DNA of 50,577 nt, taken from assembly GCA_046756985.1 (NCBI GenBank), contig JBHHXG010000001.1:1-50577 (forward strand), written 5' to 3'. Below are positions 18,718 to 44,055 of this stretch, in pieces. The translations under genes were made by a program, and so were the position numbers. The first letter of the stretch is position 1, and each line of letters starts with the position of its first letter. Below the pieces are notes generated by a model. That model did no database searches. It had not been told where the DNA came from and saw nothing but the letters and a program-made list of their open reading frames with translations. This DNA is from Mariprofundaceae bacterium (GTDB lineage Bacteria > Pseudomonadota > Zetaproteobacteria > Mariprofundales > Mariprofundaceae).

Positions 18718-19860
18718 TTAATGCGGCCGACGCACAAGCAGCAGAGACGCTCCCTCCCGTAAAAACTGCCAGCCGGCTTTAAGTAACTGCTTCAGGCGTT
18801 TGCGGATAAAGTTGCATTTCACACAGCCACCCTGCGCCATCTGCTGGCGCACTTCATAACGTGGATAAATGGTTTCGCACCAGAAGGCCAGCCGATGCGA
18901 AAAATCCGGCTGCATGCGTGCAAACAACCGCTCGGCCAGATATGGGATGACTTCATGATTCATATGCCGCGCAAACAGCCGCCGCTCGATAAAGCCCATA
19001 TCCGGCCTGATATCATTCAGCAGACGCTCCGGCACAGAGGCCCCCAGATATTCCCCAACGTAGGCCAGCGCATAATAACAGGGCCGCTGTAGCCGGTATT
19101 CGCGGATGCCTGCCAGTACCTCATCCCATTGCCCTGCAGCATCAATGCTGTTCGCCAACAGTGCAATATCATACAGCCAGATCAGCCGCTCAAAGGAATG
19201 TTTCAGGGCATGAAAACACAGGTACGGCAGATGGACGCGTGGCGAAACAAGCAATGCCTTCTCACCTGCCAGTTCACCCTCTTCGGCATATTTGAAAAAG
19301 TCACTCGCGCGTAGCGGTGTCAGATATTGCCACGCCCGGATACGCTCCATCCCCAGGGGCTCATGATGTAAATCAAGCATGATATCGCCACGAAAATAGA
19401 TATTTCGGTAGCTCTGGTGTGGCCTGAAACCGATGTCCCACAATGCCTGCTTGGCATCGAGCATGCGTGCTTCACTCAGCAGCAGATCAATATCGCTCTG
19501 TGGACGCAGCGGCGCATTTTCACCATACAACGGTTCGGAAACCGCCAGACCACGCATACAAAGCACAGGAATACCGGTTCGCCGCAAGGCCGAAAGCACC
19601 TGTCCGCAGGCATGGCGTCGGCGCAGAAACTGGGCTGCCTGATGATACTGATTTGCTTCCGATGCTTCGCGGAACTCATGATCTGCAGCAATTTCCCGCT
19701 GTTGCTGCATGGCGGACCATAGCAACTGATCCATGCCTTCACGCATCGCCGCGCCCCATAACTGGCCGTCTTTCAGGTCTTCGGAAGACGGGGCACGGCT
19801 GGACAACAACTGGCAAAGACGACTGCGAGGCGCTAGAATTTTCATTGCTGGGACAGACAT
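18718..19860 (-). CDS. Nucleotidyltransferase family protein (PF14907-like, RiPP-associated type)
   Basis: 380 aa. MRGLAVSEPLYGENAPLRPQSDIDLLL gives the G..(n)..DxD nucleotidyltransferase-fold signature. Divergent from the Cys-rich precursor gene. Confidence 0.75.
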   Translation of the reverse strand: MSVPAMKILAPRSRLCQLLSSRAPSSEDLKDGQLWGAAMREGMDQLLWSAMQQQREIAADHEFREASEANQYHQAAQFLRRRHACGQVLSALRRTGIPVLCMRGLAVSEPLYGENAPLRPQSDIDLLLSEARMLDAKQALWDIGFRPHQSYRNIYFRGDIMLDLHHEPLGMERIRAWQYLTPLRASDFFKYAEEGELAGEKALLVSPRVHLPYLCFHALKHSFERLIWLYDIALLANSIDAAGQWDEVLAGIREYRLQRPCYYALAYVGEYLGASVPERLLNDIRPDMGFIERRLFARHMNHEVIPYLAERLFARMQPDFSHRLAFWCETIYPRYEVRQQMAQGGCVKCNFIRKRLKQLLKAGWQFLREGASLLLVRRPH

Positions 19861-19953
19861 TGATTCATAAAGCTATTCCAAAGTGAATTGTCCTGCCAGC
19901 CGGAAGGGGCCGAAAAGAACTGAAAAGGTTATTTGGCCTTGCGAGGTGAACAC

Positions 19954-20352
19954 ATGCATAAGGATAAACAGGCGGAAACAGAAAACAGTGAGTTGCATGC
20001 CCGCCGCAAGCTGCTGAAGATGGCCGCCTATGTGCCCCCAGCTATTCTCGGCGTGATGATCGCCGGCAACAAACCAGCCATGGCGGGCAAGCCACCGATT
20101 CCGGGTTCAACCAAGGTCTGCAAGGGTGGTGGCACCATTGTAATTTCTGCCGGCGGCACCGCGTGTTGTCCCTGTGTACCTACCGATCCGAAATATGACC
20201 CTTACAAGTGCGCATTGAAGAAGTGTCAGCTGGGCAATTGTGCTGCCTGTCCGGCCGTATTTGTGAAAAAGAAACACTGTCAGATCGCCGCCGCTGCATG
20301 CGGCTGCACCTGTGTTAAGGATCCCGTGACCAAGCTCTGGAGCTGCAATTAG
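19954..20352 (+). CDS. Cys-rich precursor peptide/miniprotein with twin-arginine-type signal peptide (132 aa)
   Basis: GAGGTG Shine-Dalgarno 5 nt before ATG 19954. N-terminus HARRKLLK, a 16-residue hydrophobic stretch, then NKPAMA|G. The C-terminal 88 aa carry 13 Cys (CCPC, CALKKCQLGNCAAC, CGCTC). Lies immediately upstream of a radical SAM gene. Confidence 0.75.
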   Translation: MHKDKQAETENSELHARRKLLKMAAYVPPAILGVMIAGNKPAMAGKPPIPGSTKVCKGGGTIVISAGGTACCPCVPTDPKYDPYKCALKKCQLGNCAACPAVFVKKKHCQIAAAACGCTCVKDPVTKLWSCN

Positions 20353-20369
20353 TCCTGCATTGACTATCT

Positions 20370-21530
20370 ATGCCGCACATCGCTAACTCTGTACCGGCAA
20401 TGCAATCATCGCCGCTACCGCTGTTTCTTCCCAATGGACAAGCCCTGCTGCTGCAAGCACTGGATGGGCATGTACTGAATCTGACTGGTACAGGCGAAAC
20501 CGCCCGCATAGACGGCTCGCTCGCGACCAGTGTTTCGGCATTAGCCCATGGCAAGGCGGAGACCAGAGACCGGCAACGCCTTGCCGTCCTTGAACGCCAG
20601 CATGCCTGGCTGCAGGGCCTGAGCCGGGCACAAACGACGCCGCCGCAGGGCCTTGCCCGCACACTGCTTCGCTCAGAACTGGGTATGCTATTTGTCGAAG
20701 TCACGGCAAAATGCAATGAGCGCTGCATCCATTGTTATGCCGATTCCGACCCGGATCGGACCGACTTTCTGAGCCTTGATGAAATCATCGCTGCACTGGA
20801 TCAGGCGCGTGAGTTTGGACGCGCCTTTGTCCAGTTTACCGGCGGCGATCCGCTGCTTCATTCACAGCTTCCCGAGGCTGTTGCACATGCTGCCGGGCTC
20901 GATTTTGACGGCATTGAAATCTATACAAACGGCCTGTTGCTCAATGACCGTCTGCTCGACAAACTTGCCGAATACCAGCCGCGCTTTTCGTTCTCAATTT
21001 ACGGCGATTTGCCGGATATTCATGATGCCATTACTAAGGTTCCGGGCAGCTGGAGGCGCACGCTCGACGCCATGCGACGTGCCATGCAAGCCGGACTTGA
21101 AGTCCGTGCAGGAATTGCGCTGATGCCCGAGAACATTGCCCGCGCCGAACATATGAGCGCTTTCCTTGAAAACGAACTGGGCCTGGATGAGCGCCAAATC
21201 CGTTTTGACCCGGTCAAACAGACCGGCCGTGGTCGTTTTATGGACGAAGTCACGCAGGTGCTGGTTTCACCAAACGCGCACAGCAGCAACAAGGGCTCCC
21301 GCGGCAAGCTCTGCATCAGTGCGGATGGCAATGTTTACCCCTGCATCTTCGCCCGCCACAATGTACTCGGAAATGTTCGTCAGCAGCCGCTTGCAACCAT
21401 CATGACTGCGCTGGACAGCCGTCCCCCCGTCGTACCTTCGCCTGAACGCTGGCAGCGGTGTCAACAATCGTTAAGCTGTGGCGATTGCCAGATCATTTCC
21501 TACATCATCGGAGAAGATGGCCATGAATGA
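20370..21530 (+). CDS. Radical SAM peptide-modifying enzyme with abbreviated SPASM/twitch C-terminus
   Basis: 386 aa. CNERCIHC (CxxxCxxC) at about residue 115, GGDPLL SAM-binding motif. C-terminal Cys motifs are CISADGNVYPC then CQQSLSCGDC. The N-terminal start is uncertain (20370 or 20400). Confidence 0.85.
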   Translation: MPHIANSVPAMQSSPLPLFLPNGQALLLQALDGHVLNLTGTGETARIDGSLATSVSALAHGKAETRDRQRLAVLERQHAWLQGLSRAQTTPPQGLARTLLRSELGMLFVEVTAKCNERCIHCYADSDPDRTDFLSLDEIIAALDQAREFGRAFVQFTGGDPLLHSQLPEAVAHAAGLDFDGIEIYTNGLLLNDRLLDKLAEYQPRFSFSIYGDLPDIHDAITKVPGSWRRTLDAMRRAMQAGLEVRAGIALMPENIARAEHMSAFLENELGLDERQIRFDPVKQTGRGRFMDEVTQVLVSPNAHSSNKGSRGKLCISADGNVYPCIFARHNVLGNVRQQPLATIMTALDSRPPVVPSPERWQRCQQSLSCGDCQIISYIIGEDGHE

Positions 21531-21816
21531 AATGACCGCTATCAAGGTTCCACAGCATCCAAAAAAGAAAGATGGCCTGATCGCTGAAGAGCTGGAAGGC
21601 ATGGATGAAGTAATTTTTGTAGACACTGAGTCAGGCTCAAACTTTTCGCTGAACACCATGGCCTCAGCCATTCTGGAGCTTTGTGACGGCGAACATACGG
21701 CAGACGACATTGCTACGCTGGTCTGTGATACATTCAACGGTGATATGCAGCAAATCAGCAAGGATACGCGTGCCATACTGATGGAGTTTGCCGCCTACGG
21801 CCTGTTCGCCGAATAA
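21523..21816 (+). CDS. PqqD-family protein (RiPP recognition element-like peptide chaperone)
   Basis: About 97 aa. LIAEELEGMDEVIFVDTESGSNFSLNTMASAILELCDGEHTADDI fits the PqqD fold pattern. Candidate starts at 21517/21523/21532 overlap the radical SAM stop (21528-21530). GGAG at 21509-21512. Confidence 0.8.
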   Translation: MNEMTAIKVPQHPKKKDGLIAEELEGMDEVIFVDTESGSNFSLNTMASAILELCDGEHTADDIATLVCDTFNGDMQQISKDTRAILMEFAAYGLFAE

Positions 21817-21817
21817 T

Positions 21818-22666
21818 ATGGCATGGAAACACGCCTTTCGTGTCGGTCATGTCACTGTCGGCATTGTTTCAGAGCATCCCGGGTGCAGTGATATCATTCG
21901 AACACTGATTTGCCTCTATGCAGAGACAAATGCCTCACCTGATATTCCGTTTTTCATTCGCTGCAAGGGCGATACAATCGAGCTGGCCGTGGATGACACG
22001 GTACTGTGGTCAGGTACGGATGCAGGCGAAATCGTGGCGGGCTTTGAGGTGCATCTTTATACCCGCATCCTGCAGCATCTGTCGCCTGCCTATAGCTCAA
22101 TCCATGCCTCAGCCATCAATATCGGCAACCAAGCCTGTATCTTTGCGGGCGAATCCAATGCCGGCAAAAGTAGCCTGTGTACAGCGGCTTTGCTGGATGG
22201 GGCGGACTATTTATCAGACGAATTCGCCTTACTGGATGAAAACGGCCTGATCGAGCCGTTCCCGCGTCCGTTGCAATGGGGAAAGGCCCGACATCCGGCC
22301 TTTCCCCACCATGCCATGCTTTCTGGTCATTTGTTTGCGAAAGCATATTTCCGCTTCCCCGATCATCAGGGAAAAACCGTCTGCAATCTGCTGTGGCTTC
22401 CAGCCAATGTTGAACATCAAGCGCTGCCATTGCGCTACCTATTGCTGCCGTGCTACCGGCGTAATGCACCACCTGCCGAATTAACGTCCATCCGCCGCGG
22501 CGAGGCATTGATGGCACTTCCCGAACATCTGCATCATCGCGATACGCCCGAAGCCATGTTAAAAACACTGAATCACCGCCTGCCAGAAGCCACCGAGTTT
22601 TTCCGCCTCGAATTTTCCGATGCGCATGCTGCTTACAAGGCGGTCAAGCAACACCTTTGTGCCTGA
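21818..22666 (+). CDS. HPr kinase/phosphorylase C-terminal-domain-like P-loop protein (HprK-related)
   Basis: 282 aa from the ATG 1 nt after the PqqD stop. P-loop GESNAGKSS followed by YLSDEFALLD, as in the HprK catalytic domain. Confidence 0.75.
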   Translation: MAWKHAFRVGHVTVGIVSEHPGCSDIIRTLICLYAETNASPDIPFFIRCKGDTIELAVDDTVLWSGTDAGEIVAGFEVHLYTRILQHLSPAYSSIHASAINIGNQACIFAGESNAGKSSLCTAALLDGADYLSDEFALLDENGLIEPFPRPLQWGKARHPAFPHHAMLSGHLFAKAYFRFPDHQGKTVCNLLWLPANVEHQALPLRYLLLPCYRRNAPPAELTSIRRGEALMALPEHLHHRDTPEAMLKTLNHRLPEATEFFRLEFSDAHAAYKAVKQHLCA

Positions 22667-23846
22667 CCCTGCCAATCTTCCAGACGCGTACAATGCTGCG
22701 CCAGAGCAGCGTCAGGCTGGCATGCAAATCACGCCCGTCCCATGCACCTAGACTCGCATCCAAGGCCCTGTCCCGATAACGGCGTAAGGCAGCGGTAATC
22801 ATGCTGATCTTGCGCCATAGGCCATGACAGCGTGAGGCATCTGCATCCCAATCCGGATCATGATAACAGGTGCCAATTATGCGCGTATATTCGGCTCTTG
22901 ATCGTTGCAGACAGGCCTCATCCAGTTGGGCATCTTCGGCGCACATCCTGTAATAGGCCTGCAGGAACCCTGCTCCGTCGGCCTCGGCCAGACATGTCCA
23001 GCCCGACAGGCGGGGGTTGATTTCCAGCAATTGCCATTCTCCGTTGGCATCCTGTTTGCATTCCACTTCGGCAAAGCCCTTCCAGCCAAGATGGCTCAAC
23101 AGCTCGCATGCGCCTGCATACAGCTCCGGAATCCATTCGGCCTTCGCTGCGGTGGTCTCGCCAAATGGACCATGGTGTGTTTGTGCCACCCGCTGGCGAC
23201 GACCGGTAAAGCCGCGTACCGGCCGCCCATTGTCATCAAACAGTACAATGGCTGAGGCCATACGTTCTGTTTCTCCTGCAATATAACTTTGGACGATTTC
23301 CATCTGCTCGCCATGACCTGCTTCAATCATCGGCTGCAGAAATTTTCTGAGCGCCCCTGCATCATCAAAGCGGACAAAACCATTCCTGCGGGTCTTGATG
23401 ACAACCGGAAAGGCGCAACCGCACTTTTCGTCATACAGCTCCTGCATGCTGATGACTTCGCAATCGGGCATGCGGATGATCCCTTGCGGTTGCAATTCAT
23501 GCGTCGTGATTGCCCGTCTGACCGTTTCTTGATCGGCTGAGAGAAAACGCATGCCAATATTGCGCAGCAAAGGCGCATATTCAGCCGTAAATTCCGCCAT
23601 ATCATCAACACATGGCAGCCATACGCCTTGCAGGCCTGATTTTTTCAGATTCATCGCATAGACGCCGTTGACCACCTCACCCAGGCACGGAAGTTCCACA
23701 GCTTTCTGGATATAGCGGCTTTTTTTCACCCATGGCTCCATCGGCCAACTGGTACCAATCACCGGAATGCCGGCACGCCCTGCTGCCTGTGCCAGAGCAA
23801 ACATCTGCGAATCCTGCAAATCGTGAATGACCATCGGCATGCTCAT
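22644..23846 (-). CDS. ATP-grasp superfamily ligase (COG3919-like)
   Basis: 400 aa from MSMPMVIHD. FPVVIKTRRNG, VQSYIAGE and LLEINPRLSG are ATP-grasp signatures. The start ATG overlaps the MFS stop (ATGA). The 3' end overlaps the HprK-like gene convergently by 23 nt. Confidence 0.8.
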   Translation of the reverse strand: MSMPMVIHDLQDSQMFALAQAAGRAGIPVIGTSWPMEPWVKKSRYIQKAVELPCLGEVVNGVYAMNLKKSGLQGVWLPCVDDMAEFTAEYAPLLRNIGMRFLSADQETVRRAITTHELQPQGIIRMPDCEVISMQELYDEKCGCAFPVVIKTRRNGFVRFDDAGALRKFLQPMIEAGHGEQMEIVQSYIAGETERMASAIVLFDDNGRPVRGFTGRRQRVAQTHHGPFGETTAAKAEWIPELYAGACELLSHLGWKGFAEVECKQDANGEWQLLEINPRLSGWTCLAEADGAGFLQAYYRMCAEDAQLDEACLQRSRAEYTRIIGTCYHDPDWDADASRCHGLWRKISMITAALRRYRDRALDASLGAWDGRDLHASLTLLWRSIVRVWKIGRVRHKGVA

Positions 23847-24979
23847 GGTTTTGTGGGTAACCCCCTGACCAGAAACATACCCAACAGGGCCATAGCTGCA
23901 CAGACGTAGAACGCGGCTGAATAACCCGAAGACTCGGCAATCACACCGCATCCCATGATACCCACAGCGCTGCCCAAACCAAAGCCGGATGCTGAATACC
24001 AGCCTTGCGCGGTGGCATGTCTGCCAGCCGGCGCCAGACGCTTGACCCATGTCACGGCGGAAAGATGAAAGGCTGCAAAGCTGGCTGCATGCAGAAGCTG
24101 CAGCAGGATAAGAGGCAACCAGTGCTCAAACAAACCAATGCCAAGCCAGCGCAATGAAGCCAGCAGTAAACTGCCGCCCAACACCCAGGCCGGTGCGGCC
24201 CGCTGCAACCGCCCACCCCACATCCACATCAGCACTATCTCGGCCAGCACACCTAGAACCCAGAAGGTGCCGATCTGCCAACCGAAATAACCAATCTCGA
24301 CAAGATAAAGACTATAAAAACCGTAATAGGCGCCATGCGAGACCTGCATGACAAAACTGGCTGCCAAAAGTGCGAAGAACGGCGAGCTAAACCCGGTTTG
24401 CACGCCATCCGGAAGGGTTTCTGCGTCGCTATGATCAGGAAATCCGCGCGCCGCCATTGCGGTCACAAACATCAGGCCAGCCAGCCAGTACGGAAACTGC
24501 TCCATGGCGACACCAGCCAGCCAGACCCCTCCCGCCAGAGACGCCGCAACAAATCCAACCGACCCCCAGACGCGCAAGCGGCCGTAATCGGCAAGGGCGG
24601 CTTCGGATACCGATACCGACAGCCCATCGGTCAACGGCAAGATGGCCGCCCACAATACTCCAAATATGAATATAACCGTCGCCAGCAGGTACAGATCATG
24701 CACATAGGCCATGCCCACGGCAAAGGCAGCTGCCACAACCGATGCCAGAACGATAAAGCGTTGCGACTGCTTGCCGCTGCTTCGATCCAGCACATGACCT
24801 GCCCATGGTGGCGCGATGACTTTGGCTGCTGCCAGCAGGCCAGTCATAATACCAATGGCGCTGACATCCAGCCCCTGATCCGCCAGATAAACGGGAAAAT
24901 AGGGAAGAATCAGCCCCATCGCGGCAAAATAGGCAGCGTAAAAAAGCCGGATGTGGTGCAATGAGACTGAGCTAACCAT
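23843..24979 (-). CDS. MFS transporter (MFS_1_like / HcaT-type, 12 TM)
   Basis: 378 aa. N-terminus RLFYAAYFAAMGLILPYFPVYLADQGL and about 12 hydrophobic helices. Confidence 0.85.
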   Translation of the reverse strand: MVSSVSLHHIRLFYAAYFAAMGLILPYFPVYLADQGLDVSAIGIMTGLLAAAKVIAPPWAGHVLDRSSGKQSQRFIVLASVVAAAFAVGMAYVHDLYLLATVIFIFGVLWAAILPLTDGLSVSVSEAALADYGRLRVWGSVGFVAASLAGGVWLAGVAMEQFPYWLAGLMFVTAMAARGFPDHSDAETLPDGVQTGFSSPFFALLAASFVMQVSHGAYYGFYSLYLVEIGYFGWQIGTFWVLGVLAEIVLMWMWGGRLQRAAPAWVLGGSLLLASLRWLGIGLFEHWLPLILLQLLHAASFAAFHLSAVTWVKRLAPAGRHATAQGWYSASGFGLGSAVGIMGCGVIAESSGYSAAFYVCAAMALLGMFLVRGLPTKP

Positions 24980-25053: not shown

Positions 25054-26079
25054 ATGCCAAGCCGCTTTCTTGCCCTGCTGATCTCATGCCCATTGATGCT
25101 TCTGACTGCCTGCGGCAATGGCCATGGCCTGAATATGGCACTCGGATGGAAGGCTGAAATCATCACGGAATGGGATGATTTCCTGCCAGATATGCTGGTC
25201 CTTTCGGATGACGGACGATTTCTGTTCGCCAGCTGTGAAACCAGAGCCAATATGCTTTCACCATCGCTGGCCCGTATTGATCTGACAACAGGCACAGCAG
25301 ATATTTTGCTGTATGGCCTCGAACGTGCCGACGGACTGAAGCTGGATCAGGGCGGCAGCCTGTGGCTTGGCGAGGAAAGCAGCGATGGATTGATCTGGAA
25401 AGTCCCCGATCCTCACGCTTTTCCCGCCGGGCAGCGTATCGACCGTGTCCGCCTGACCCGAAGCAATAGCACTGTTACGCCTGTCCTTGAAGCCGGGCGG
25501 TTTGCACACGAAGGACTCTCGTTTTCAAGGAATGGCACTTATCTCTACCTTGCCGATGAGTGGATCGAAGGCTGCCTGTACCGGCTGAGTCTGCAAAGCT
25601 GGCAATTACAGGTGCTGCACAAATCCAGCGGGTGGCTTGATATCAACAGGACAGAAGAAGCGCGCCTATATGCTGAGAAAAGACATGGCCGTATCTTCAG
25701 GCGGCTGGAGGACATGGAAATGCTGCCGGATGGCCGCATTCTTCTAGCCGAAACAGGCGCCGGGGCTGAAGCCGGCCGCATTCTAGTGCTGGATGACCGG
25801 GGAGTTGCCCCTGCTATCTCAGTTTTTCTCGAGGATGCCCGCCTGCATCATCCGGACAATCTCGAATGGGACAGCAAACGAAACTGGCTGTGGATCACTG
25901 ACGACGATGAGCCTTCTGCCTTGTGGGTCTGGAATGGCAAGGACCTGCAGCGCATCGCCATGCATGACCATGCCGAAATCACCGGTGTGGAAAGCGCTAC
26001 CAACGGCGACATCTATATCAACCTACAACACCGCCGCTTCGGCTCCGACCTGACATTACGGCTGATACGGACGCACTGA
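25054..26079 (+). CDS. Lipoprotein, predicted beta-propeller fold
   Basis: 341 aa. Lipobox LLTAC. Repeated Asp/Gly/Trp-rich blade-like segments (DGRFLF, GSLWLGEE, GTYLYLADE, DGRILLAE, NWLWITDDD). Confidence 0.6.
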   Translation: MPSRFLALLISCPLMLLTACGNGHGLNMALGWKAEIITEWDDFLPDMLVLSDDGRFLFASCETRANMLSPSLARIDLTTGTADILLYGLERADGLKLDQGGSLWLGEESSDGLIWKVPDPHAFPAGQRIDRVRLTRSNSTVTPVLEAGRFAHEGLSFSRNGTYLYLADEWIEGCLYRLSLQSWQLQVLHKSSGWLDINRTEEARLYAEKRHGRIFRRLEDMEMLPDGRILLAETGAGAEAGRILVLDDRGVAPAISVFLEDARLHHPDNLEWDSKRNWLWITDDDEPSALWVWNGKDLQRIAMHDHAEITGVESATNGDIYINLQHRRFGSDLTLRLIRTH

Positions 26080-26687
26080 TGGAAGAGTGGCTGCAAATCG
26101 TTATCCGGCAGATCACGCTGTACAGTCTTCCAGTTGTGATATCCCTGTCGCTAATTGGCATGTTCGAAGCATGGCGCGCAATCCCCGAAGCATCATCCGA
26201 CCATCCGTTTTTCGCCCTGGCCTGGCAAGGAAGCTGGATGCCACTGTTGGCATCCATCGCCTTTACACGCGCAGTCATCATCGCCTTGCCACGACCCATG
26301 AACCATCATCCGCGTGCAGCCGCCAGGCGTTGTCTGGGACATATTGTACTGTGCATTGCAGGCTGGCTGATGTATGCATGGGCGCTTGGCCATCAGCCTC
26401 CGGCAGGCCTGCCCCCTTTACACCACTGGTGGGCCAAGGTCTTCATGTTTTTTAATCTGTGCATGGCCTTGATGCACCTGTTGCCGCTGCCTGGCATGTG
26501 GCTGGGTGAAATGCTGTTGGCATCCAGATTTGGAGCACCATTCTCGATGTATATAACCAGCCGGCGCAGCGTCTGGTTATATGCCCTGCTGGCGGCATCC
26601 CCGTTGCTTGATATGTCGGTCGGAGCGATTGCGATCTTTCCGGTTTACGAAGCCATGGCAGATGCCGCCTTCCATCTGGCATCCTGA
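26079..26687 (+). CDS. Membrane protein, degenerate site-2-protease (M50)-like
   Basis: 202 aa, about 6 TM. FFNLCMALMHLLPLPGMWLGEM resembles the M50 NxxxxxxNLLPxxPLDGG helix, but FEAWRA sits where HExxH is expected. TGATG overlap with the upstream lipoprotein gene. Confidence 0.5.
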   Translation: MEEWLQIVIRQITLYSLPVVISLSLIGMFEAWRAIPEASSDHPFFALAWQGSWMPLLASIAFTRAVIIALPRPMNHHPRAAARRCLGHIVLCIAGWLMYAWALGHQPPAGLPPLHHWWAKVFMFFNLCMALMHLLPLPGMWLGEMLLASRFGAPFSMYITSRRSVWLYALLAASPLLDMSVGAIAIFPVYEAMADAAFHLAS

Positions 26688-26696
26688 GATGGCGGC

Positions 26697-27452
26697 TCAT
26701 TCACACTTGGTTCGCCAGTCCACCCGTGACGCCACGACATCGCCAATGACTACAATGGCCGGGGATTGTGCTGTCAAATTTCCATCCAGCACGTCGGCAA
26801 GCGTGCCTGATGTGATCTCTTCCTGCGGCCATGTGGCGGCATAAATCACCGCAACTGGCGTCATCGTATTCAGGCCGGCTTCCAGCAGTCGCTGGCTAAT
26901 ATCGGGCAGAGAACGAGCGCCCATATAAAAGACCAGCACAGGAAAGGCCGCAACCATGGCCTTCCAGTCGATACGGCTTTCTTTACTGGCTTCATGGCCT
27001 GTCAGAAAGGCCAGTGTGCTGTTTACCGAACGATCCGTCAGGGGAATCCCCGCCATGGCCGGGGCGGCCATGCCCGAAGTGATACCGGGAATCACACGAA
27101 AACGGATACCGGCTTTTGCCAGTGTTCTGATTTCTTCGCCGCCGCGGCCAAACACAAACGGGTCGCCCCCTTTGAGACGAACCACCCGTTTATCCTCGTT
27201 CGCCAGTTCGATCAGTGTATCACAAATGTCAGCCTGATCCGCTGATTCCCTGCCGCCACGCTTTCCGGCCGGAATCAACTCGGCACCAATCGCAGCCAGA
27301 TTCAGCACCTCTTCGGACACCAGCGCGTCAAAAACGATGGCATCGCAATCACCAATCAGCTTGGCCGCCGCCAGCGTCAGTAAATCCGCAGCACCCGGCC
27401 CTGAACCGACCAGCGCCACCTCCCCGGGGCCCAACGAATCAGACAGCTTCAT
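26697..27452 (-). CDS. cobA: Uroporphyrinogen-III C-methyltransferase (SUMT)
   Basis: 251 aa. VALVGSGPGAADLLTL, RLKGGDPFVFGRGGEE and VIPGITS are canonical TP-methylase motifs. Confidence 0.92.
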   Translation of the reverse strand: MKLSDSLGPGEVALVGSGPGAADLLTLAAAKLIGDCDAIVFDALVSEEVLNLAAIGAELIPAGKRGGRESADQADICDTLIELANEDKRVVRLKGGDPFVFGRGGEEIRTLAKAGIRFRVIPGITSGMAAPAMAGIPLTDRSVNSTLAFLTGHEASKESRIDWKAMVAAFPVLVFYMGARSLPDISQRLLEAGLNTMTPVAVIYAATWPQEEITSGTLADVLDGNLTAQSPAIVVIGDVVASRVDWRTKCE

Positions 27453-28066
27453 GCTGCCTCCTTGAACAGGGATGTAATTAATTCGGCAAAATCCGAACCT
27501 TTTGAGAGCGCCGGCAGGATTTCAACATCCTCCCCTCTCGCCATGGTTGCCATCTCGTCCATGCTTTTGCCATCGAAGAGCAGCATCGGCTGCAGGCGGA
27601 TCGCGCCGACGCCATCCTCACGCCACAGCCGGATCACCGAGGCGATCGTCGGTTCGGCATGCAGGGCACCGTGCGCGACCAGCGTGCAGCGTTTGTTGCG
27701 CTCGTGCAATGCTGCATTTAGGGCCTCAAAACCGGCATAGCAGTAAAGACCAAACAGCGCGTTGACCCGCCGACCTTCTGCCGTCATCCGGTCGTAGGCA
27801 AGCTCGGCGATGCGATCCGCATGCGCGGCCAGTGACGGCAGCAGCATAGCCTGTGACTTTTCCGCCAGCTTTGGCGCATCCACCGCCCCGTGCTGTCCAT
27901 AACCAAGGAACAGCGGCAGCACCCGTGTGCCTTTGGGTAGCCACTCATCAGACAAAAACGCCGCCTTTACCTCCTCACTCAGCCGTTGCGAAACACCCGC
28001 CGCCAAAGCCCGCACCTGCTCACCGTGGCGTTGATCCGAGGAACCATGCGCCAGCAGCACAAACAT
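27449..28066 (-). CDS. cbiX: CbiX/SirB class II chelatase (sirohydrochlorin cobalto- or ferrochelatase)
   Basis: 205 aa. VLLAHGSSD and PLFLGYGQHGAVDAP in the first lobe, a second lobe LVAHGA. ATGA-type overlap with cobA. Confidence 0.75.
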   Translation of the reverse strand: MFVLLAHGSSDQRHGEQVRALAAGVSQRLSEEVKAAFLSDEWLPKGTRVLPLFLGYGQHGAVDAPKLAEKSQAMLLPSLAAHADRIAELAYDRMTAEGRRVNALFGLYCYAGFEALNAALHERNKRCTLVAHGALHAEPTIASVIRLWREDGVGAIRLQPMLLFDGKSMDEMATMARGEDVEILPALSKGSDFAELITSLFKEAA

Positions 28067-28626
28067 CAGAATTCGATTCCCTGCGTGGCCTTGATGCCCT
28101 GATCAAAGGCATGCTTGATCTTCTTCATTTCTGTCACGGTGTGCGCCATGGCGATCACTTCATCTGCAGCATTGCGGCCGGTCAGAATCACATGCATCCA
28201 TTCGGGTCGCTCCTGACGCAAAAACTCGGCAATCTCCGCGCCGCTAATCCAGCCGTAGTCACAGCAATAATTGATCTCATCCCAGACAACCAGATCATAG
28301 GCTTGTGAACGCACCTTATCCTTGCATAGCGCCCATATTTCACGGCTGGTTTGCCTGTCCTGCTCTGGGTTTTTCGTATCCCAGGTAAAGCCTTCGCCAA
28401 GCGCATGCCACTCAATTTTCTCAAAGCGTTCGGCTGCTTTCTGTTCCCCTGTCTGCCATTTGCCCTTGATAAACTGGATAACGCACACTTTCATACCCCA
28501 GGCGGCTGCACGGAATACCATACCAAAGGCAGAGGACGATTTACCCTTGCCCTCCCCGGTATTCACCACAATCAATCCCTGCCGCTTGTCACGCTGTTTC
28601 AAGTGTTCTCCTGTAGTCGGGCACAA
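28066..28626 (-). CDS. cobO: Cob(I)yrinic acid a,c-diamide adenosyltransferase
   Basis: 186 aa. GLIVVNTGEGKGKSSSAFG, VIQFIKGKW and LVVWDEINY are typical of CobO/BtuR. Confidence 0.92.
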   Translation of the reverse strand: MCPTTGEHLKQRDKRQGLIVVNTGEGKGKSSSAFGMVFRAAAWGMKVCVIQFIKGKWQTGEQKAAERFEKIEWHALGEGFTWDTKNPEQDRQTSREIWALCKDKVRSQAYDLVVWDEINYCCDYGWISGAEIAEFLRQERPEWMHVILTGRNAADEVIAMAHTVTEMKKIKHAFDQGIKATQGIEF

Positions 28627-29341
28627 TCAGTTGGCCCTCTTCCAGGCGCAGGATCGGCATATGAAACAATGCCTCAAGCCTGTCCGGAACCAGCATCGCC
28701 TCCGCATCGCCGTGAGCCACACGCCCATCGCCATAGATAAACACGACTATGTCCGCCGCACAAGCCGCCTGCTGCACATCATGCAGCACAGAAACGACGG
28801 CTTTGCCCATATCAGCCTGTTCACGCATCAGTGCAAGCCATGTGGACTGATGCCTGAGATCCAGGTGAGCCGTCGGTTCATCAAGCAGCAATACCGGACA
28901 GTCGCGCAACAGGACAGCCGCCAACTCGGCGCGCTGCCGCTCGCCGGTGGACAATTCACCCAACATGCGTGTCAGCAAATGGTCTATATCCAGTTCGGCC
29001 GCCACCTGTTGCAAGGCTTCACATTGGCCATCCTGCATGGCCAGCTCCAACCGCTGTTTCACGGTGAGGCCGAACTCTGTGGGTGGCAGCTCCCCCTGCC
29101 ATGCCAGATGCCTGGCAATATGCCTGCGGGATAATTCCCTGATATTGCTCTCTCCCAATTCGATACGCCCCGACTGAACCGGAAGCATACCGGCCAGAGC
29201 CAGCAACAGGCTCGATTTTCCCGCGCCATTTGGCCCCAATACAGCAATCACCTTGCCGGCGTCTATATTCATACTCAGCGCTTCGGCAATTGCATGACTG
29301 CCACGTGCCAGATACAGATCGTGTAGCCTGAGCATACTCAT
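28589..29341 (-). CDS. btuD: ABC transporter ATP-binding protein, cobalamin/iron-chelate type
   Basis: Walker A GPNGAGKSS, signature LSTGERQR, Walker B LLLDEP. Start at MSMLRL gives an ATGA overlap with the permease stop. Confidence 0.85.
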   Translation of the reverse strand: MSMLRLHDLYLARGSHAIAEALSMNIDAGKVIAVLGPNGAGKSSLLLALAGMLPVQSGRIELGESNIRELSRRHIARHLAWQGELPPTEFGLTVKQRLELAMQDGQCEALQQVAAELDIDHLLTRMLGELSTGERQRAELAAVLLRDCPVLLLDEPTAHLDLRHQSTWLALMREQADMGKAVVSVLHDVQQAACAADIVVFIYGDGRVAHGDAEAMLVPDRLEALFHMPILRLEEGQLIVPDYRRTLETA

Positions 29342-30282
29342 CCCCGCTTCAGCAGCAGCCACAAAAATACAGGTACGCCAATCAGGGCGGTGATCACACC
29401 TACCGGCAGTTCAGCAGGGGCAATGACAGTTCTCGCACCGGTATCAGCCAGCATAAGCAGTATGCCGCCGCCAAGGGCCGAAGAAGGCAGAACCATGCGG
29501 TGCAGACTGCCGAATAGCAGGCGCATGATGTGCGGCACGATAAGACCAACAAAGCCAATCGTGCCCGCCGCAGCTACGGCTATTGAGGTCACCGCCGAGG
29601 CAAGAAAGAGCAACATCAGGCGAAGCCGCCGGATATCAATACCCAGTGCCACAGCATGGGCTTCACCCAAAAGTAACATGTCCAGTGATCGTGAAAGAGC
29701 CATACCGCAGGCCAGCGATGCTGTCCATATAGCCAACAGACCTGCTACCGGAATTTCCGATGCAGACAGATCTCCCATCATCCAACCAAATGCCATACCC
29801 AGTTGCTGCGCAGGCAGCAGGGCCAGCAGTAGTGCTACGCATGCGCCCCAGAAGGCGGCCAGCACAACGCCTGCCAGCAACAGGCGTGATGGGCCAAGAT
29901 GTGAAAAAGCCATAATCAGAATGATGCCGATCCATGCACCGGCGAAGGCGCCAGCTGACATCGACCATGCCGATGCTGGCATCAGAGCAACGCTGCATAT
30001 GGCTCCGACGGCGCTGCTTCCCGCCACACCGAGTACGTAAGGCTCAGCCAGTGGATTCCCCAACAGCACCTGAAACCATGCACCGGCCAAGGCCAGCAGG
30101 CCTCCGACAACAAAGGCAATCAGTATGCGGGGCATGCGTAATTCCCACAGAATCGTCTGTTCAAGTGCTGACTGGGGGCTGAAGGGGTTGATCCAGCCAT
30201 CGCCGGAACCAAGGCTGATGATGCCGACAAGGGCAGCAAGCACCAGTAAAACCACTGCCAGAGTCCAGTGATTAAATGTCAT
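29338..30282 (-). CDS. btuC: FecCD-family ABC permease (BtuC-like)
   Basis: About 314 aa and about 10 TM. LRMPRILIAFVVGGLLALAG and the C-terminal GVITALIGVPVFLWLL are typical of FecCD/BtuC. Confidence 0.85.
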   Translation of the reverse strand: MTFNHWTLAVVLLVLAALVGIISLGSGDGWINPFSPQSALEQTILWELRMPRILIAFVVGGLLALAGAWFQVLLGNPLAEPYVLGVAGSSAVGAICSVALMPASAWSMSAGAFAGAWIGIILIMAFSHLGPSRLLLAGVVLAAFWGACVALLLALLPAQQLGMAFGWMMGDLSASEIPVAGLLAIWTASLACGMALSRSLDMLLLGEAHAVALGIDIRRLRLMLLFLASAVTSIAVAAAGTIGFVGLIVPHIMRLLFGSLHRMVLPSSALGGGILLMLADTGARTVIAPAELPVGVITALIGVPVFLWLLLKRG

Positions 30283-31069
30283 TGGCCACCTTGCGAAGCC
30301 GGGCAGACAAAATCTCAATACCGTCAATCAACCGCGGGCCCGGCCGGCTGATCATATCCTGCGGTACCGGAACAACTTTCACACTGTCTCCGAAATATTG
30401 ATGCCAGAACCGTCTGCGGACCGGGACATGCCCCGGCATATCGGGAACCAGAATCGCCACTGGGCGCGCCTTGATCACCGACTCTACACTGATGCGCGGG
30501 CTTTCGACGGCCACGTGGTCAAACACGTTTTTTGCCCCGGATGCGCGCAATACATCGGTGATAAAACTTCTGGCACCCGAGCTCACCAGCGGTTCGCTCC
30601 ATGCCTCGTAAAATACCGGTATCGGCTCTGCGATCTGCTGATGAATCCGTTTCAGTCTCATTGTAAAATTATCTGCCAGCACCCGCGCCTGTCTGATATG
30701 GCCTGTCAGGTGCCCCAGATTCAGGATATCATGCACCACGTCCTGCACGGTCCGCGGATGACTTTGTATGACCTTGACACGAAAGGATTCCAGTTTCAGA
30801 AGGCCGGACATATGCCGGTCAAACACTACCGCCATCGTGGGTTCAAGACGGAGCGCGACCTCGATATTGACGCGTTTGAAATCCCCTACGCTCGGCAACT
30901 GCTGCACGGCTTCCGGATAGTCACAGGCATCAGCAACGCCAACCACATCTTTTCCTGCCCCGACGGCAAACAGAATTTCGCAGGCATGTGGCGATAACGC
31001 CAGAATGCGTTCTGCCGACTGCGCCAGCGGCGCAATCAACAGTAATATCGACAGAACGACAATTCTCAC
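30272..31069 (-). CDS. btuF: Periplasmic substrate-binding protein, BtuF/cluster A type
   Basis: ILALSPHACEILFAVGAG and VVGVADACDYP are typical of BtuF-like binding proteins. I place the start at GTG (Val30 of the track ORF 30272..31156). This gives a Sec signal ending AQSA and a GTGA overlap with the tonB-like stop. The start is uncertain. Confidence 0.75.
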   Translation of the reverse strand: MRIVVLSILLLIAPLAQSAERILALSPHACEILFAVGAGKDVVGVADACDYPEAVQQLPSVGDFKRVNIEVALRLEPTMAVVFDRHMSGLLKLESFRVKVIQSHPRTVQDVVHDILNLGHLTGHIRQARVLADNFTMRLKRIHQQIAEPIPVFYEAWSEPLVSSGARSFITDVLRASGAKNVFDHVAVESPRISVESVIKARPVAILVPDMPGHVPVRRRFWHQYFGDSVKVVPVPQDMISRPGPRLIDGIEILSARLRKVANDI

Positions 31070-31779
31070 AGTTTTCTGAAACGCAGCCGAAAGTGGAACG
31101 ATCTTTCGGCGGCGGGAAATGGCTGGGCGCGCTTGACCGTTTCCTTCGCCGCCCAATCAAGCAAATCATAACCTGAGCTGGCCAGCACCATGATTTCAGC
31201 GGCCATACCAAGCTGATCAAGCATGAATCCAACTTCAACCTCGCCTGCAATTCCCCGCCTGCGGGCGCTGGCAGGATAGAACTTGTGGGCTTCCAGATGC
31301 TGCCTGACCCGCTCGCCGGCTTCCCCCCTGACATCCCCGCTTTGTACAGAATCCGCCGACAAATGTTCTGCCACACCCATGCCGTTATTCAAACCAGGGT
31401 GATTTACCACTTCCGAGGCGGATACCGGAAGCGGTATTTCTGCTCTGGCAATTTTGGGAGCCTGGTTGATGGCCGTTCCGGTTTTTGACGGCTCCCGAAG
31501 TGACTTGTCTGGCTGTACCGATTCTGTTTCCAGACTGGCATCTGCATGAACATTGACGGCCAGCATTTCAACCTCGACCATCATTCGGCCTGCGGCAGCC
31601 TGGGGGACCTGAACCACATCCCAGAGGCACAACACGATCAGGCCGTGGATGACAACACTTGCTGCCAGCCACGGGCAGAAGCGAAAAATATCAGAACCTA
31701 TAGCCGGCTCCGGCACGAACGCCAATTTCCGGTGAAGGGTAGAAATTGTCGGTTCCAGAGAATGATGAGAACACACCAT
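31066..31779 (-). CDS. tonB: TonB-family energy transducer
   Basis: 237 aa. One N-terminal TM helix, a linker, and the C-terminal TonB domain YPASARRRGIAGEVEVGFMLDQLG. The ATG at 31779 lies 89 nt inside the upstream receptor gene. Confidence 0.75.
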   Translation of the reverse strand: MVCSHHSLEPTISTLHRKLAFVPEPAIGSDIFRFCPWLAASVVIHGLIVLCLWDVVQVPQAAAGRMMVEVEMLAVNVHADASLETESVQPDKSLREPSKTGTAINQAPKIARAEIPLPVSASEVVNHPGLNNGMGVAEHLSADSVQSGDVRGEAGERVRQHLEAHKFYPASARRRGIAGEVEVGFMLDQLGMAAEIMVLASSGYDLLDWAAKETVKRAQPFPAAERSFHFRLRFRKL

Positions 31780-33625
31780 AACTGCTGTATTTCTTATTTG
31801 TCAGATTGTCGATGCGGGCAAAAATTTCCATGTCTTTCCAACGATAGCTGGCCACCGCATCGAGCACCAGATAGGAAGGCAGCTGCGATCTCGCATTTGC
31901 CTGATCACTGATCAGGAACGACTGGCCGACATACGTCAGGTTCAGTGTCGTGGAAAAGCCATGTCCCCAATCAGCCAGCCAGGACGCGCCAACGCGATTT
32001 TTTGCCACGGCAGGGATTTCATTGCCGGAAAACACGCCACCATGGAATGTTGCTTTTGTGTAAGCGTAGTTAGCACTCAGGATGGCCCGGTCATGGGCCC
32101 GCCAGTGGCCGGACACGGCAATGACATCATGCCGCGTTGGGTCCGCATAATTCTCATTGGCGAATGCCAGCGGATTGAAAAATATTTCATGATCCAGATC
32201 GGCGCGGCTCAGCGATGCCTCCAGCCATACACGATTCCAGTCTTGGCGCAGACTGATGGCATAATGCTGGCCAGTTTGCGCCAGTAGCGATGTGTTGACC
32301 GCTCCGGTAAAGAAATCAAAGCGTTCATCCAGCAATGGGAAACGTACCGAACTGGCAGCATTCAGTCGCAGGCGGAGCTGTTCGGTAATGCCAAAGGAAA
32401 TTCCGCTCTCCCATACAGTCTCGCGCTGCGAAACAGAGTTTGTTGCCGTCTGGGTAAATATATCCTCAACCTTCTCGGTACGGACCCCGCCACTGACATG
32501 CCAGCGATGATCGGCGCTTCCTGCCTCCACAAGGCCATAATAGCCATCCCGTTTGCGATCAAAAAATGTTGTCGGCAGCGGGAAGGCGCCGCCAAAGACA
32601 AAAGAGCCATCGCCACGGTCAATATCGGCCCCTGTAACCAGATGCCAGCGGACATCATTACCGGCCGCATAACTCAGCTTGGGTCGGAAAGACCGATTCT
32701 GCTGAACGAAATCGCTGTTGGATGAAAAAAACCCAAAAAACTCGGAATGCACATCCCGCCTGCGAAAACCACCAGCAAGATCAAGCGTCAGACCAGATAT
32801 GCCACTCCATACCAGACCGCCATCAATAAAATCATCCGTTGACCGGCTGAAGTCCTGTGGATTTGCTGCCTGCCTACGATCGACGATAATTTGTGCCGCC
32901 GTCAGCGCACCCGGCAGACCCGCACGGTCCCGATGATGATTGCCGCTGATATTCAGGCTGATATTAGCAGGCAAATCGGCCTCGGCCCGTACACCGCCGT
33001 CGAAACGGTCGAAGAAACTGTTGTCGCGATACCCGTCTGTCGTGGTGCCCGAGAAATTCGTCTCAACGCGCACCTTGCCAGCATCCGCGCCGATACGTCC
33101 CGCACCCTCAAACGTACCGAAGCTGCCGCCTGACAGACTGATATTGCCGCCTGACTCCGGAATACGGGTAATGATGTTAATCACACCACCGACTGCGCCA
33201 TCCCCATACAGCACCGAGCCACCACCATGAACAATTTCAATACGCTCAATCTGATCAACAGGAATCTGGCTCCAGTCCACACCGGAAAGATCGGGGCTGT
33301 TGACTCGCCTGCCATCAATCAGAACAATACTGTTTGCGGCTGCTGTCTCACCGTAACCGCCCAGATCAACACGTGATTTTGCACCCACGCCGGTAATGTC
33401 ACTGACGACAATATTGGCCTGCCCCTTGAGTAGATCGACAACATTCCCGGCGTGGCTACCCTCAATGGTTTGCCTGTCGATGATGGTAACCGCCCGGGAT
33501 GATGTGATCGATGGCGCCTGTGTACGTGTGGCTGTTACGTTAATGGTACCCAGATCTTCCTGAGCATGTGCAATCAGAGGCATGCCGAGCATGACCACAA
33601 CTACGAATTTGATCTGTTTTGTCAT
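31691..33625 (-). CDS. btuB: TonB-dependent outer-membrane receptor, cobalamin type (BtuB-like)
   Basis: 644 aa. Signal peptide, TonB box-like INVTATRT, plug domain, C-terminal GAGYRF. Directly preceded by a cobalamin riboswitch. Confidence 0.85.
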   Translation of the reverse strand: MTKQIKFVVVVMLGMPLIAHAQEDLGTINVTATRTQAPSITSSRAVTIIDRQTIEGSHAGNVVDLLKGQANIVVSDITGVGAKSRVDLGGYGETAAANSIVLIDGRRVNSPDLSGVDWSQIPVDQIERIEIVHGGGSVLYGDGAVGGVINIITRIPESGGNISLSGGSFGTFEGAGRIGADAGKVRVETNFSGTTTDGYRDNSFFDRFDGGVRAEADLPANISLNISGNHHRDRAGLPGALTAAQIIVDRRQAANPQDFSRSTDDFIDGGLVWSGISGLTLDLAGGFRRRDVHSEFFGFFSSNSDFVQQNRSFRPKLSYAAGNDVRWHLVTGADIDRGDGSFVFGGAFPLPTTFFDRKRDGYYGLVEAGSADHRWHVSGGVRTEKVEDIFTQTATNSVSQRETVWESGISFGITEQLRLRLNAASSVRFPLLDERFDFFTGAVNTSLLAQTGQHYAISLRQDWNRVWLEASLSRADLDHEIFFNPLAFANENYADPTRHDVIAVSGHWRAHDRAILSANYAYTKATFHGGVFSGNEIPAVAKNRVGASWLADWGHGFSTTLNLTYVGQSFLISDQANARSQLPSYLVLDAVASYRWKDMEIFARIDNLTNKKYSSYGVFSSFSGTDNFYPSPEIGVRAGAGYRF

Positions 33626-33960: not shown

Positions 33961-34046
33961 AAACGGGAAGCACTCTACTTTACATTAAAATAAAATCCAG
34001 CTTGAAAGGGTGTGCTTAGATGAGTTGCTTAAATGCTAAACGTGCT

Positions 34047-43979: not shown

Positions 43980-44055
<76 letters not shown>

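Follow-up and report, generated by a model that had tools for sequence, protein, structure and literature searches.

A Cys-rich protein with a conserved twin-arginine-type leader beside a radical SAM gene in Zetaproteobacteria: candidate precursor of a new family of enzyme-modified ribosomal peptides

A stretch of 50,577 nucleotides from a Mariprofundaceae bacterium (Zetaproteobacteria; GenBank assembly GCA_046756985.1, contig JBHHXG010000001.1), called the window below, contains an open reading frame (ORF) at 19954-20352 on the forward strand that precedes a radical S-adenosylmethionine (SAM) gene. This ORF is proposed to encode the precursor of a new family of enzyme-modified ribosomal peptides or mini-proteins, whose first 44 residues would serve both the docking of the modifying enzymes and export of the twin-arginine translocation (Tat) type. 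Taken as a whole, the chances for and against this reading are judged to be about even. It is carried by a leader consensus, ARRxLLKxxxYxPPAILG, that is kept over 134 members with unalignable cores, and by the pairing of the ORF with the radical SAM gene in more than 30 loci from two bacterial lineages. The latter bears out the role of radical SAM substrate that was assigned to the ORF in the preliminary description, an account made from the letters of this DNA without database searches.

Precursor gene and homologues

The gene was delimited by its homologues and its ribosome-binding site:

19954..20352, forward strand: precursor gene, 132 aa

Conceptual translation of 19954-20352 (+) gave the same 132-residue protein as before, and its Cys content (none in residues 1-55, 13 in the last 77 residues) and the patterns CCPC, Cx4Cx4CxxC and CxCxC were reproduced exactly. 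The Cys occupy residues 56, 71, 72, 74, 86, 91, 96, 99, 109, 116, 118, 120 and 131. The tail, described earlier as Lys-rich, is so indeed: the predicted mature part after A44 (residues 45-132) contains 12 Lys and no Arg, and its isoelectric point is 9.0. A GAGG ribosome-binding site is located at 19943-19946, 7 nt 5′ of the ATG, and since homologues begin at the same Met, a longer TTG-initiated ORF (from 19933) is unnecessary. The distance from the stop codon to the start of the radical SAM gene is 18 nt. A promoter and terminator scan returned weak consensus matches only.

A search of 5.8 billion proteins yielded 76 close homologues, all unannotated, and those with a named source belong to metagenome-assembled genomes (MAGs) of Mariprofundaceae or other Zetaproteobacteria. 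A profile search of 1.84 billion representative proteins gave 65 hits at E<=1e-3 and widened the family to a superfamily. About 135 relatives are known in all. Pfam and NCBIfam scans of the whole precursor and of the leader alone gave no match, even at E<=10. In an alignment of 41 homologues with 44-65% identity (alignment A1), seven Cys are invariant (56, 71, 72, 74, 86, 91 and 99) and the remaining six are kept in 34-37 of the 41 sequences; S65, A66, G68 and P73 are also invariant, and R17 and R18 are kept in 40 sequences. The ORF is a real gene, and a family of relatives with conserved Cys spacing, as envisaged in the preliminary description, exists.

Pairwise identity differed strongly between segments. 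It was 0.30 in the n-region (residues 1-15), 0.79 and thus highest from RR to the end of the h-region (16-37), 0.54 in the c-region (38-44), 0.34 in residues 45-55, 0.61 in the core (56-99) and 0.35 in the C-terminal third (100-132). Because of the peak at 16-37, this pattern is that of a typical leader of a ribosomally synthesised peptide with post-translational modifications (RiPP), unlike that of an ordinary signal peptide.

In one metagenomic relative (P0083, 213 aa), the mature domain of the window type is preceded by some 120 unrelated residues, rich in Lys and Ala, instead of the RR leader. An error of gene calling or assembly may explain this protein, or it may be a true variant without a leader.

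Leader sequence and proposed enzyme docking

The N-terminal part of the precursor is divided as follows:

19954..19998, forward strand: n-region, residues 1-15, of polar and acidic character and low conservation
19999..20019, forward strand: twin-arginine motif A-R-R-K-L-L-K, residues 16-22, defined by superfamily frequencies
20020..20067, forward strand: uncharged h-region MAAYVPPAILGVMIAG, residues 23-38, including YVPPAI (20029-20046), the proposed recognition-protein motif
20077..20085, forward strand: A42-M43-A44, predicted signal peptidase I site with cleavage before G45, from the conserved A.A offset

Leader frequencies across the superfamily were obtained from the 134 of 136 sequences that matched the motif pattern, in which Y is required. 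Positions are counted from the first Arg, and residue numbers are those of the window:

Position -1: A 77%
Positions 0 and +1: R 99% and R 99%
Positions +3 and +4: L 98% and L 99%
Position +5: K 76%
Position +9: Y, fixed by the search pattern
Positions +11 and +12: P 96% and P 100% (P28 and P29)
Position +13: A 90%
Position +14: I 80%, V 9%, M 8% (I31)
Position +15: L 84%
Position +16: G 98% (G33)

RR is missing from two members only, P0099 and P0118, both of them truncated fragments, and the number of residues before RR ranges from 2 to 37 across the superfamily. The motif [Y/W]xxPx[L/V/I/F/A] binds the discrete recognition elements of lasso and linear polyphosphorylated peptide (LPP) systems, as established by structures and mutagenesis (PMC13381572), and Y26-V-P-P29-A-I31 of the window leader fits it. 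A conserved leader, a hypervariable core and adjacency of a maturase across taxa, which are the marks of a RiPP whose leader is read by a RiPP recognition element (RRE), were all found. As an alternative to a Tat signal, the preliminary description had suggested that the RR segment is the leader bound by the PqqD protein; this gained support from the peak of conservation, from Y26-x-x-P29-x-I31 and from the similarity of the PqqD protein of the cluster to the lasso recognition protein TbiB1. Judging from the sequence, the Tat-signal and PqqD-leader readings overlap on one segment and are most likely both true.

Two conserved blocks of the leader (RRxLLK and YxPPAILG) stand alongside two potential leader-binding modules in the cluster. 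Mimicry of HPr by the leader segment AILGVMIAG was also considered, with S46-IMGVMSLG of HPr as the similar stretch; the resemblance was unsupported by search, as phmmer of the leader against all PDB sequences was empty at E<=10, and the idea was dropped.

Signal-peptide features and probable export

Apart from the docking motif, the leader has the layout of a signal peptide. An A.A pair was found 21-29 residues past RR in 70 of 89 non-redundant members, compared with 10.3 +/- 2.9 (maximum 22) in 1000 shuffles. Sixteen different residues occur in the middle of A-x-A, the residue at +1 of the predicted cleavage is never Pro, and the predicted signal has a median length of 46 residues. The uncharged stretch usually comprises 15-20 residues or more across the superfamily and 17 in the window (K22 to K40). 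In the window the c-region reads NKPAMA/G (the slash marks the predicted cut) and contains a basic residue, as it does in 83 of 134 members (62%). In the smallest relatives the core follows directly after A-x-A, for example AQA/SCMPATCMPATCMPINCMPLACMPND. The RR motif, the moderately hydrophobic stretch and the AxA site, on which the signal peptide of the preliminary description was built, are therefore conserved across the whole superfamily.

Neither a recognisable leader peptidase nor an ABC exporter was found in the window cluster or in L030, the sole locus outside Zetaproteobacteria with its neighbours scanned; a 662-aa neighbour in locus L040 has no Pfam hit on record. The conserved A-x-A, the uncharged stretch, the variable n-region and the lack of a peptidase or exporter gene together make export and cleavage by signal peptidase I likely, as far as sequence features can tell. 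RiPP precursors with Sec (general secretory) or lipoprotein signal peptides are known (PMC11626156, PMC13056109).

Given export, the sequence features somewhat favour Tat over Sec. The window motif A-R-R-K-L-L-K corresponds to Z-R-R-x-Φ-Φ followed by Lys, and the pattern used by TatP, RR.[FGAVML][LITMVF], is fitted by the RRxΦΦK of the leader. The maximum 12-residue Kyte-Doolittle hydrophobicity was 1.89 for the h-region of the window and 1.6-2.0 for the family, which is inside the Tat range and mostly below the Sec range in a small control set (1.4-2.05 for six Tat signals, five of which, HiPIP being the exception, were verified by matches to the families they belong to, and 2.0-2.6 for six Sec signals). 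The long n-region, the long signal as a whole and the basic residue in the c-region of most members also fit Tat. Moreover, 17 of 70 predicted mature N-termini are net positive, for example ADA/KKYQG. Tat is also favoured because the cytoplasmic Fe-S modifying enzymes would act before export.

Several observations weigh against the proposed reading. The Tat models PF10518 and TIGR01409 matched neither the window leader nor a short-core relative, even at E<=10, no tat genes are located within the 50-kb window, and 38% of the members have no basic residue in the c-region. AlphaFold2 confidence is low at residues 28-48. The invariant Pro-Pro in the middle of the h-region, which is atypical of a Tat signal, and a conservation beyond that of ordinary signal peptides give the segment the look of a docking leader, RRxLLK may be a second docking motif read by the RRE-like domain of the radical SAM protein, and the MFS transporter that is syntenic in Zetaproteobacteria is a possible alternative exporter. 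In addition, the radical SAM chemistry is left as a guess, and the phosphorylation site is guessed from conservation. As for the silent hidden Markov models (HMMs), each reported four of the six control Tat signals, of which one (PF10518) and three (TIGR01409) scored above the curated cutoff; because so few controls pass, the silence is weakly informative. The near-consensus Tat signal of the preliminary description accordingly stands at the level of the motif (RR 99%, LL 98-99%) and not at that of the curated models. Zetaproteobacteria MAGs are reported to contain tat genes (PMC8042907), and predicted Tat substrates together with tat genes have been reported for this class (PMC8042907, PMC3603346).

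A leader that serves docking only, with RRxLLK...YxPPAILG bound by the PqqD protein and the RRE-like domain and no export signal at all, would account for the 0.79 identity of the segment, its near-invariant Pro-Pro and its YxxPxΦ motif; two RRE-like modules could explain the two conserved leader motifs, and silent generic Tat HMMs and a syntenic MFS gene would be in keeping. This explanation is nevertheless rather unlikely, for it leaves the positional A-x-A with its variable middle residue and absence of Pro at +1 unaccounted for, as well as the 15-20-residue uncharged stretch and the long, variable, polar n-region. The YxxP-bearing leaders of lasso and LPP systems are described with neither an upstream RRxLLK nor a downstream AxA (PMC13381572). 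Similarly doubtful is its corollary, in which some protease would remove the leader and the product would stay in the cytoplasm or leave via the MFS transporter: neither the window cluster nor L030 encodes a recognisable protease, and the MFS gene is missing from the minimal clusters found outside Zetaproteobacteria.

Export in unfolded form through Sec, with RR as a positively charged n-region or a docking determinant, has a precedent in bufferin precursors, which carry Sec signal peptides (PMC11626156). The lack of Tat HMM matches and the members without a basic 'Sec-avoidance' residue in the c-region agree with it, and the C-terminal domain, with its many Cys, could acquire disulfides once exported. 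Against it stand the 99% invariance of RR within RRxΦΦK, a signal length and hydrophobicity nearer to the Tat controls, and the net positive mature N-termini; furthermore, a substrate cross-linked by a radical SAM enzyme would probably suit Sec poorly. On balance the Sec route is considered improbable, and export of the Tat type is retained as part of the proposed reading.

Putative modifying enzymes

Three genes for putative modifying enzymes and their partner follow the precursor gene:

20370..21530, forward strand: radical SAM maturase with N-terminal RRE-like domain, CX3CX2C at C115/119/122 and SPASM/Twitch-like C-terminus
21517..21816, forward strand: discrete PqqD-type RRE (Pfam PqqD 48.6 bits, cutoff 23.4)
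21818..22666, forward strand: HprK-like P-loop kinase with Walker A GESNAGKS (TIGR04352, E=6e-15)

The radical SAM protein matched Pfam Radical_SAM with 95 bits and SPASM with 29.7 bits; no NCBIfam model was matched at cutoff, the best reaching 87 bits against a cutoff of 395. Foldseek comparison of its AlphaFold2 model (predicted local distance difference test, pLDDT, 89) gave SkfB, then CteB and SuiB as the best full-length folds, with E=1e-14 to 1e-11 and 14-18% identity for the SkfB and CteB matches. SkfB, CteB and SuiB are RiPP maturases with an N-terminal RRE, and SkfB and CteB are thioether-forming. The features expected of sactipeptide and ranthipeptide enzymes (N-terminal RRE, CX3CX2C and a SPASM/Twitch auxiliary-cluster domain) are all present in the window protein. 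The matches listed for the radical SAM protein are filled by close Zetaproteobacteria relatives and so give no view of distant systems with different leaders.

The RRE-like domain, residues 1-105 (20370-20680), is composed of four strands and two to three helices, despite the presence of a separate PqqD gene. The C-terminus contains five conserved Cys (C315, C325, C364, C370 and C373; window 21310-21490), and five conserved Cys are also found in the Twitch domain of SkfB (PMC6231123). By this sequence pattern the C-terminus matches the SkfB-like Twitch more closely than the seven- or eight-Cys SPASM domain, though Pfam calls SPASM. In view of the fold matches to SkfB, CteB and SuiB and of the Cys pattern, the foremost guess is that the enzyme forms a Cys-derived thioether cross-link.

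The PqqD protein had a lasso PqqD chaperone as its best NCBIfam match, and TbiB1 as its best PDB match (E=0.0025). The HprK-like protein reached 55 bits with TIGR04352, which is below the cutoff of 200; its orthologue in locus L004 gave a weak ScmC hit, and a homologue is also present in the deltaproteobacterial L030. Kinases of the LPP/paeninodin type that resemble HprK phosphorylate Ser of RRE-bound precursors, and the LPP kinase polyphosphorylates Ser near the core start (PMC13381572).

Core motif and C-terminal domain

The predicted mature part contains two elements:

20146..20181, forward strand: universal core motif S65-AGGTA-C71-C72-P73-C74-V-P76 (S-x5-C-x-P), proposed radical SAM and phosphorylation site
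20191..20349, forward strand: accessory Cys-rich folded domain, residues 80-132 (two helices plus a small hairpin in the AlphaFold2 model, pLDDT 78-94)

S-x5-C-x-P was found in 129 of 134 members, whose cores are otherwise unalignable, and S65, C71, C72, P73 and C74 are all invariant in alignment A1. In the short type the core motif is S-C-x-P-x-x-C-x-P-C. Across the superfamily the cores span from (CxPxx)n peptides of about 25 aa, with pure repeats in P0130-P0135, to Cys-rich domains of 180 aa. Cores rich in both His and Cys occur in P0104, P0109, P0110 and P0129, for example HEHQDHGHHGHGHH and HHHDDHHHCRPHHH; they hint at metal binding, and a metal-binding role of the product is plausible.

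The preliminary description had pointed to the Ser of the C-terminal WSCN as a kinase site. In homologues position 130 is T, V, R, I or a gap, and Ser130 was therefore rejected as the phosphorylation site. Since the LPP kinase modifies Ser near the core start and Ser65 is universally conserved, the invariant Ser65 may be guessed, from conservation and by analogy, to be the best candidate target.

Foldseek of the precursor model against the PDB returned no match at E<=0.001 (best E=5). The folded C-terminal domain is missing in the short-core relatives P0062, P0065, P0067 and P0080. The smallest relatives (P0130-P0135, P0125 and P0117; L030 and L032 near 6001-6200) have cores of 25-40 residues made of C-x-P-x-x repeats such as that given above. 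The C-x-P-S-A of other short cores resembles the C-x-P-S-R of sulfatases, the target of the anaerobic sulfatase-maturating enzyme (anSME). As anSME ranks only 22nd in the fold search and is missing from the PDB sequence hits, the analogy is kept as no more than a minor chemical alternative.

The 13 Cys, the Tat-like N-terminus and the small C-terminal fold, which is predicted with confidence, would also suit an ordinary metalloprotein exported by Tat (Fe-S or Cu, comparable to HiPIP or Csp1) that stands beside the radical SAM operon by coincidence, or an uncleaved membrane-anchored protein. This is very unlikely. Every locus for which enough DNA exists has the radical SAM, PqqD and kinase genes next to the precursor gene, whatever the lineage or the gene order; the folded domain is dispensable, as relatives with 25-40-residue cores share just S-x5-C-x-P; and there is no Pfam, NCBIfam or PDB-fold match. 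For a membrane anchor, an uncharged stretch of typically 15-20 residues with Pro-Pro is short.

Gene cluster and its distribution

Five further genes surround the precursor and its enzymes:

18718..19860, reverse strand: NTP_transf_5 nucleotidyltransferase, divergent from the precursor gene (PF14907, E=1.6e-35), syntenic in all Zetaproteobacteria loci
22644..23846, reverse strand: ATP-grasp-like protein, 400 aa, weak ATPgrasp_Ter hit, syntenic
23843..24979, reverse strand: MFS_1_like transporter (PF12832, E=8.7e-61), syntenic
25054-26079, forward strand: predicted lipoprotein, 341 aa, lipobox LLTAC, possible beta-propeller
26079-26687, forward strand: 202-aa hydrophobic protein, membrane-spanning by eye, placed by synteny

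The same gene order was found in about 30 species-level Zetaproteobacteria genomes, where the cluster often adjoins a large NAD-glutamate dehydrogenase gene, as it does in the window. Precursor, radical SAM, PqqD and HprK-like genes are present in every locus with enough DNA, so that homologous ORFs do stand beside orthologous radical SAM genes, as the preliminary description required for its claim. This minimal set also occurs in two MAGs labelled 'delta proteobacterium' (L030 and L032), and L040 has it in another gene order. The gene of a 66-aa relative directly adjoins that of its radical SAM protein, without an intergenic gap.

The convergent ATP-grasp-like (-) and HprK-like (+) genes overlap at their 3′ ends by 23 nt (22644-22666), and the start of the former overlaps the stop of the MFS gene by 4 nt. 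Three precursor paralogues were found in L004 (8001-8414, 13563-13976 and 14184-14561), two of which sit between the ATP-grasp-like and MFS genes. This placement ties both genes to the system, of which they are probably part. In L011 an unlinked orphan copy of the precursor (4693-5124) is located beside gatCAB and a cytochrome c gene. All extra copies in L004 and L011 share the same leader. The lipoprotein has faint Pfam hits of the beta-propeller type (SGL, PhoX and SdiA-regulated). Its gene and that of the 202-aa protein come after the cluster in almost every Zetaproteobacteria locus whose downstream DNA reaches far enough. It is uncertain that the two belong to the cluster; the exported product could be what they act on in the periplasm.

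A flat GC content of 0.52-0.60 and housekeeping flanks rule out a horizontally acquired island and identify a core-chromosome locus. Directly downstream of the cluster, what look like the genes of a B12 uptake and salvage block are arranged on the reverse strand at 26697-33625 (TonB, periplasmic binding protein, FecCD, ABC ATPase, corrinoid adenosyltransferase, CbiX and TP_methylase), together with a cobalamin riboswitch at 33769-33976 (-; Rfam RF00174, 109.6 bits) upstream of a TonB-dependent receptor gene. A tRNA gene lies at 43983-44055 (-; Rfam RF00005, 61.7 bits) between a SurA-like peptidyl-prolyl isomerase gene and trpE.

Proposed maturation pathway and significance

In the proposed pathway, the PqqD-type protein would bind Y26-x-x-P29-x-I31 and the residues after it in the cytoplasm, perhaps with the RRE-like domain of the radical SAM protein binding the leader too, and so present the core to the enzymes. 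The SkfB/CteB-like radical SAM protein would then act on Cys in S-x5-C-x-P(C), a Cys-derived thioether cross-link being the most likely product, and the HprK-like kinase would phosphorylate a Ser, with Ser65 as the foremost candidate. The NTP_transf_5 and ATP-grasp-like proteins of Zetaproteobacteria may attach further groups. Since the h-region includes the docking site, a bound recognition protein would hide the export signal until modification is complete. Once freed, the leader could serve as a twin-arginine-type signal with which the modified and possibly folded product would cross the inner membrane, and housekeeping signal peptidase I would cut after A44. The expected product is a basic protein of 88 residues with 13 Cys, periplasmic or extracellular.

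A more specific version is put forward tentatively, as less probable than its opposite. It describes a so far unrecognised RiPP class conserved in the core chromosome of iron-oxidising Zetaproteobacteria in which one 44-residue segment is both RRE leader and Tat signal and the PqqD protein has a proofreading role. The cross-linked, Ser-phosphorylated, Cys-rich product would be released by PqqD only after maturation and would handle metal in the periplasm.

RiPP precursors normally have a private leader, a dedicated protease and a dedicated exporter. Precursors with signal peptides have been recognised recently, and for MNIO enzymes with Sec or lipoprotein signals only. If the proposed reading is true, a radical SAM system with an RR-type signal that overlaps an enzyme-docking motif would be added, and the lasso/LPP module of RRE, HprK kinase and nucleotidyltransferase would be joined to radical SAM chemistry. 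Genome-mining rules would be widened in that small secreted 'hypothetical proteins' would be kept, and a testable coupling of cytoplasmic peptide maturation to Tat export would be at hand. The product would be a conserved, probably periplasmic, Cys-, Lys- or His-rich one in Fe(II)-oxidising bacteria, to which the handling of metals in the periplasm is of central importance. For a radical SAM subfamily that has been uncharacterised so far, S-x5-C-x-P and its (CxPxx)n variants provide a new substrate motif.

Comparison with known systems

The accessory genes resemble the LPP/paeninodin-type lasso module, with which the cluster shares a discrete PqqD/RRE protein, an HprK-like P-loop kinase and a nucleotidyltransferase, as well as the [Y/W]xxPx[L/V/I/F/A] leader motif, a conserved leader with hypervariable cores (35-200 aa) and a conserved Ser near the core start (PMC13381572). 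However, LPP clusters are not reported with a radical SAM enzyme (PMC13381572), which is central here, and the leader adds RRxLLK, a hydrophobic stretch and AxA. The window is without a lasso cyclase, B2 peptidase, SipW-type peptidase and MsbA-like exporter: the cluster genes encode no Asn-synthetase-like macrolactam synthetase (C) or transglutaminase-like peptidase (B2) domain, nor an SpI-type peptidase or ABC exporter, next to the RRE, kinase and NTP_transf_5 proteins that are present. LPP hosts are Bacillota, whereas the hosts here are Zetaproteobacteria.

To the SkfB/CteB maturases the likeness consists in the best full-length fold, the five C-terminal Cys (SkfB) and a Cys-rich substrate; unlike the window system, these are not described with an extra discrete PqqD protein, a kinase or a signal-peptide-like leader.

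Bufferins and DAG-RiPPs resemble the window system in their long Cys-rich precursors with a general-pathway signal peptide, their core-chromosome clusters, periplasmic products and metal-related function (PMC11626156, PMC13056109). A dedicated exporter or peptidase is unneeded there because the N-terminus is a general-pathway signal peptide. They differ in the enzyme and the signal, which are MNIO/DUF692 and Sec or lipoprotein there and radical SAM and RR-type here. Moreover, bufferins can be modified without their signal peptide, whereas the signal region in the window itself carries the recognition motif. The cluster encodes no MNIO (DUF692), DUF2063, DUF2282 or BUF_6/12Cys domain, and no Pfam family matches the precursor.

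The preliminary description had drawn an analogy to QhpC, the cross-linked subunit of quinohemoprotein amine dehydrogenase (QHNDH). The QhpC/QhpD pair is similar in having a small Cys protein, cross-linking by a cytoplasmic SPASM-type radical SAM enzyme and action in the periplasm. The analogy holds as such a functional likeness and fails at the gene level: there is no sequence relationship, no qhpA/qhpB or other QHNDH subunit gene and no gene for the QhpE protease or the QhpF exporter among the cluster neighbours, and the radical SAM protein scores below every curated equivalog cutoff. The QhpC leader, for its part, is removed by a dedicated protease, and export proceeds through an ABC transporter, not Tat.

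The SynChlorMet (ScmC/ScmD/ScmE/ScmF; TIGR04248-04251) and HPr-rel-A (TIGR04352/04353) systems likewise combine a radical SAM/SPASM protein, a PqqD-family chaperone and an HprK/ScmC-like protein. The hits to them are weak and far below curated cutoffs (e.g. 55 vs 200 bits), and the systems are themselves uncharacterised; no paper was found in a literature search for 'SynChlorMet', and we know of no described precursor for either. For the delay of export, TorD/DmsD/NapD-type chaperones, which bind RR signal peptides and hold export back until maturation, offer a parallel by analogy that would be functional only, as the PqqD/RRE fold is unrelated.

By their defining features, lasso, LPP, bufferin and QHNDH systems do not include the cluster. 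A full-text literature search that covered few subscription journals returned no description of it, nor of any radical SAM RiPP precursor with a leader of the Tat or RR type. The only signal-peptide-type RiPP leaders encountered were those of bufferins (Sec) and DAG-RiPPs (lipoprotein), both modified by MNIO enzymes. The cluster in the window is a new combination of a module of RRE, HprK kinase and nucleotidyltransferase with an SkfB/CteB-like maturase and a signal-peptide-type leader.

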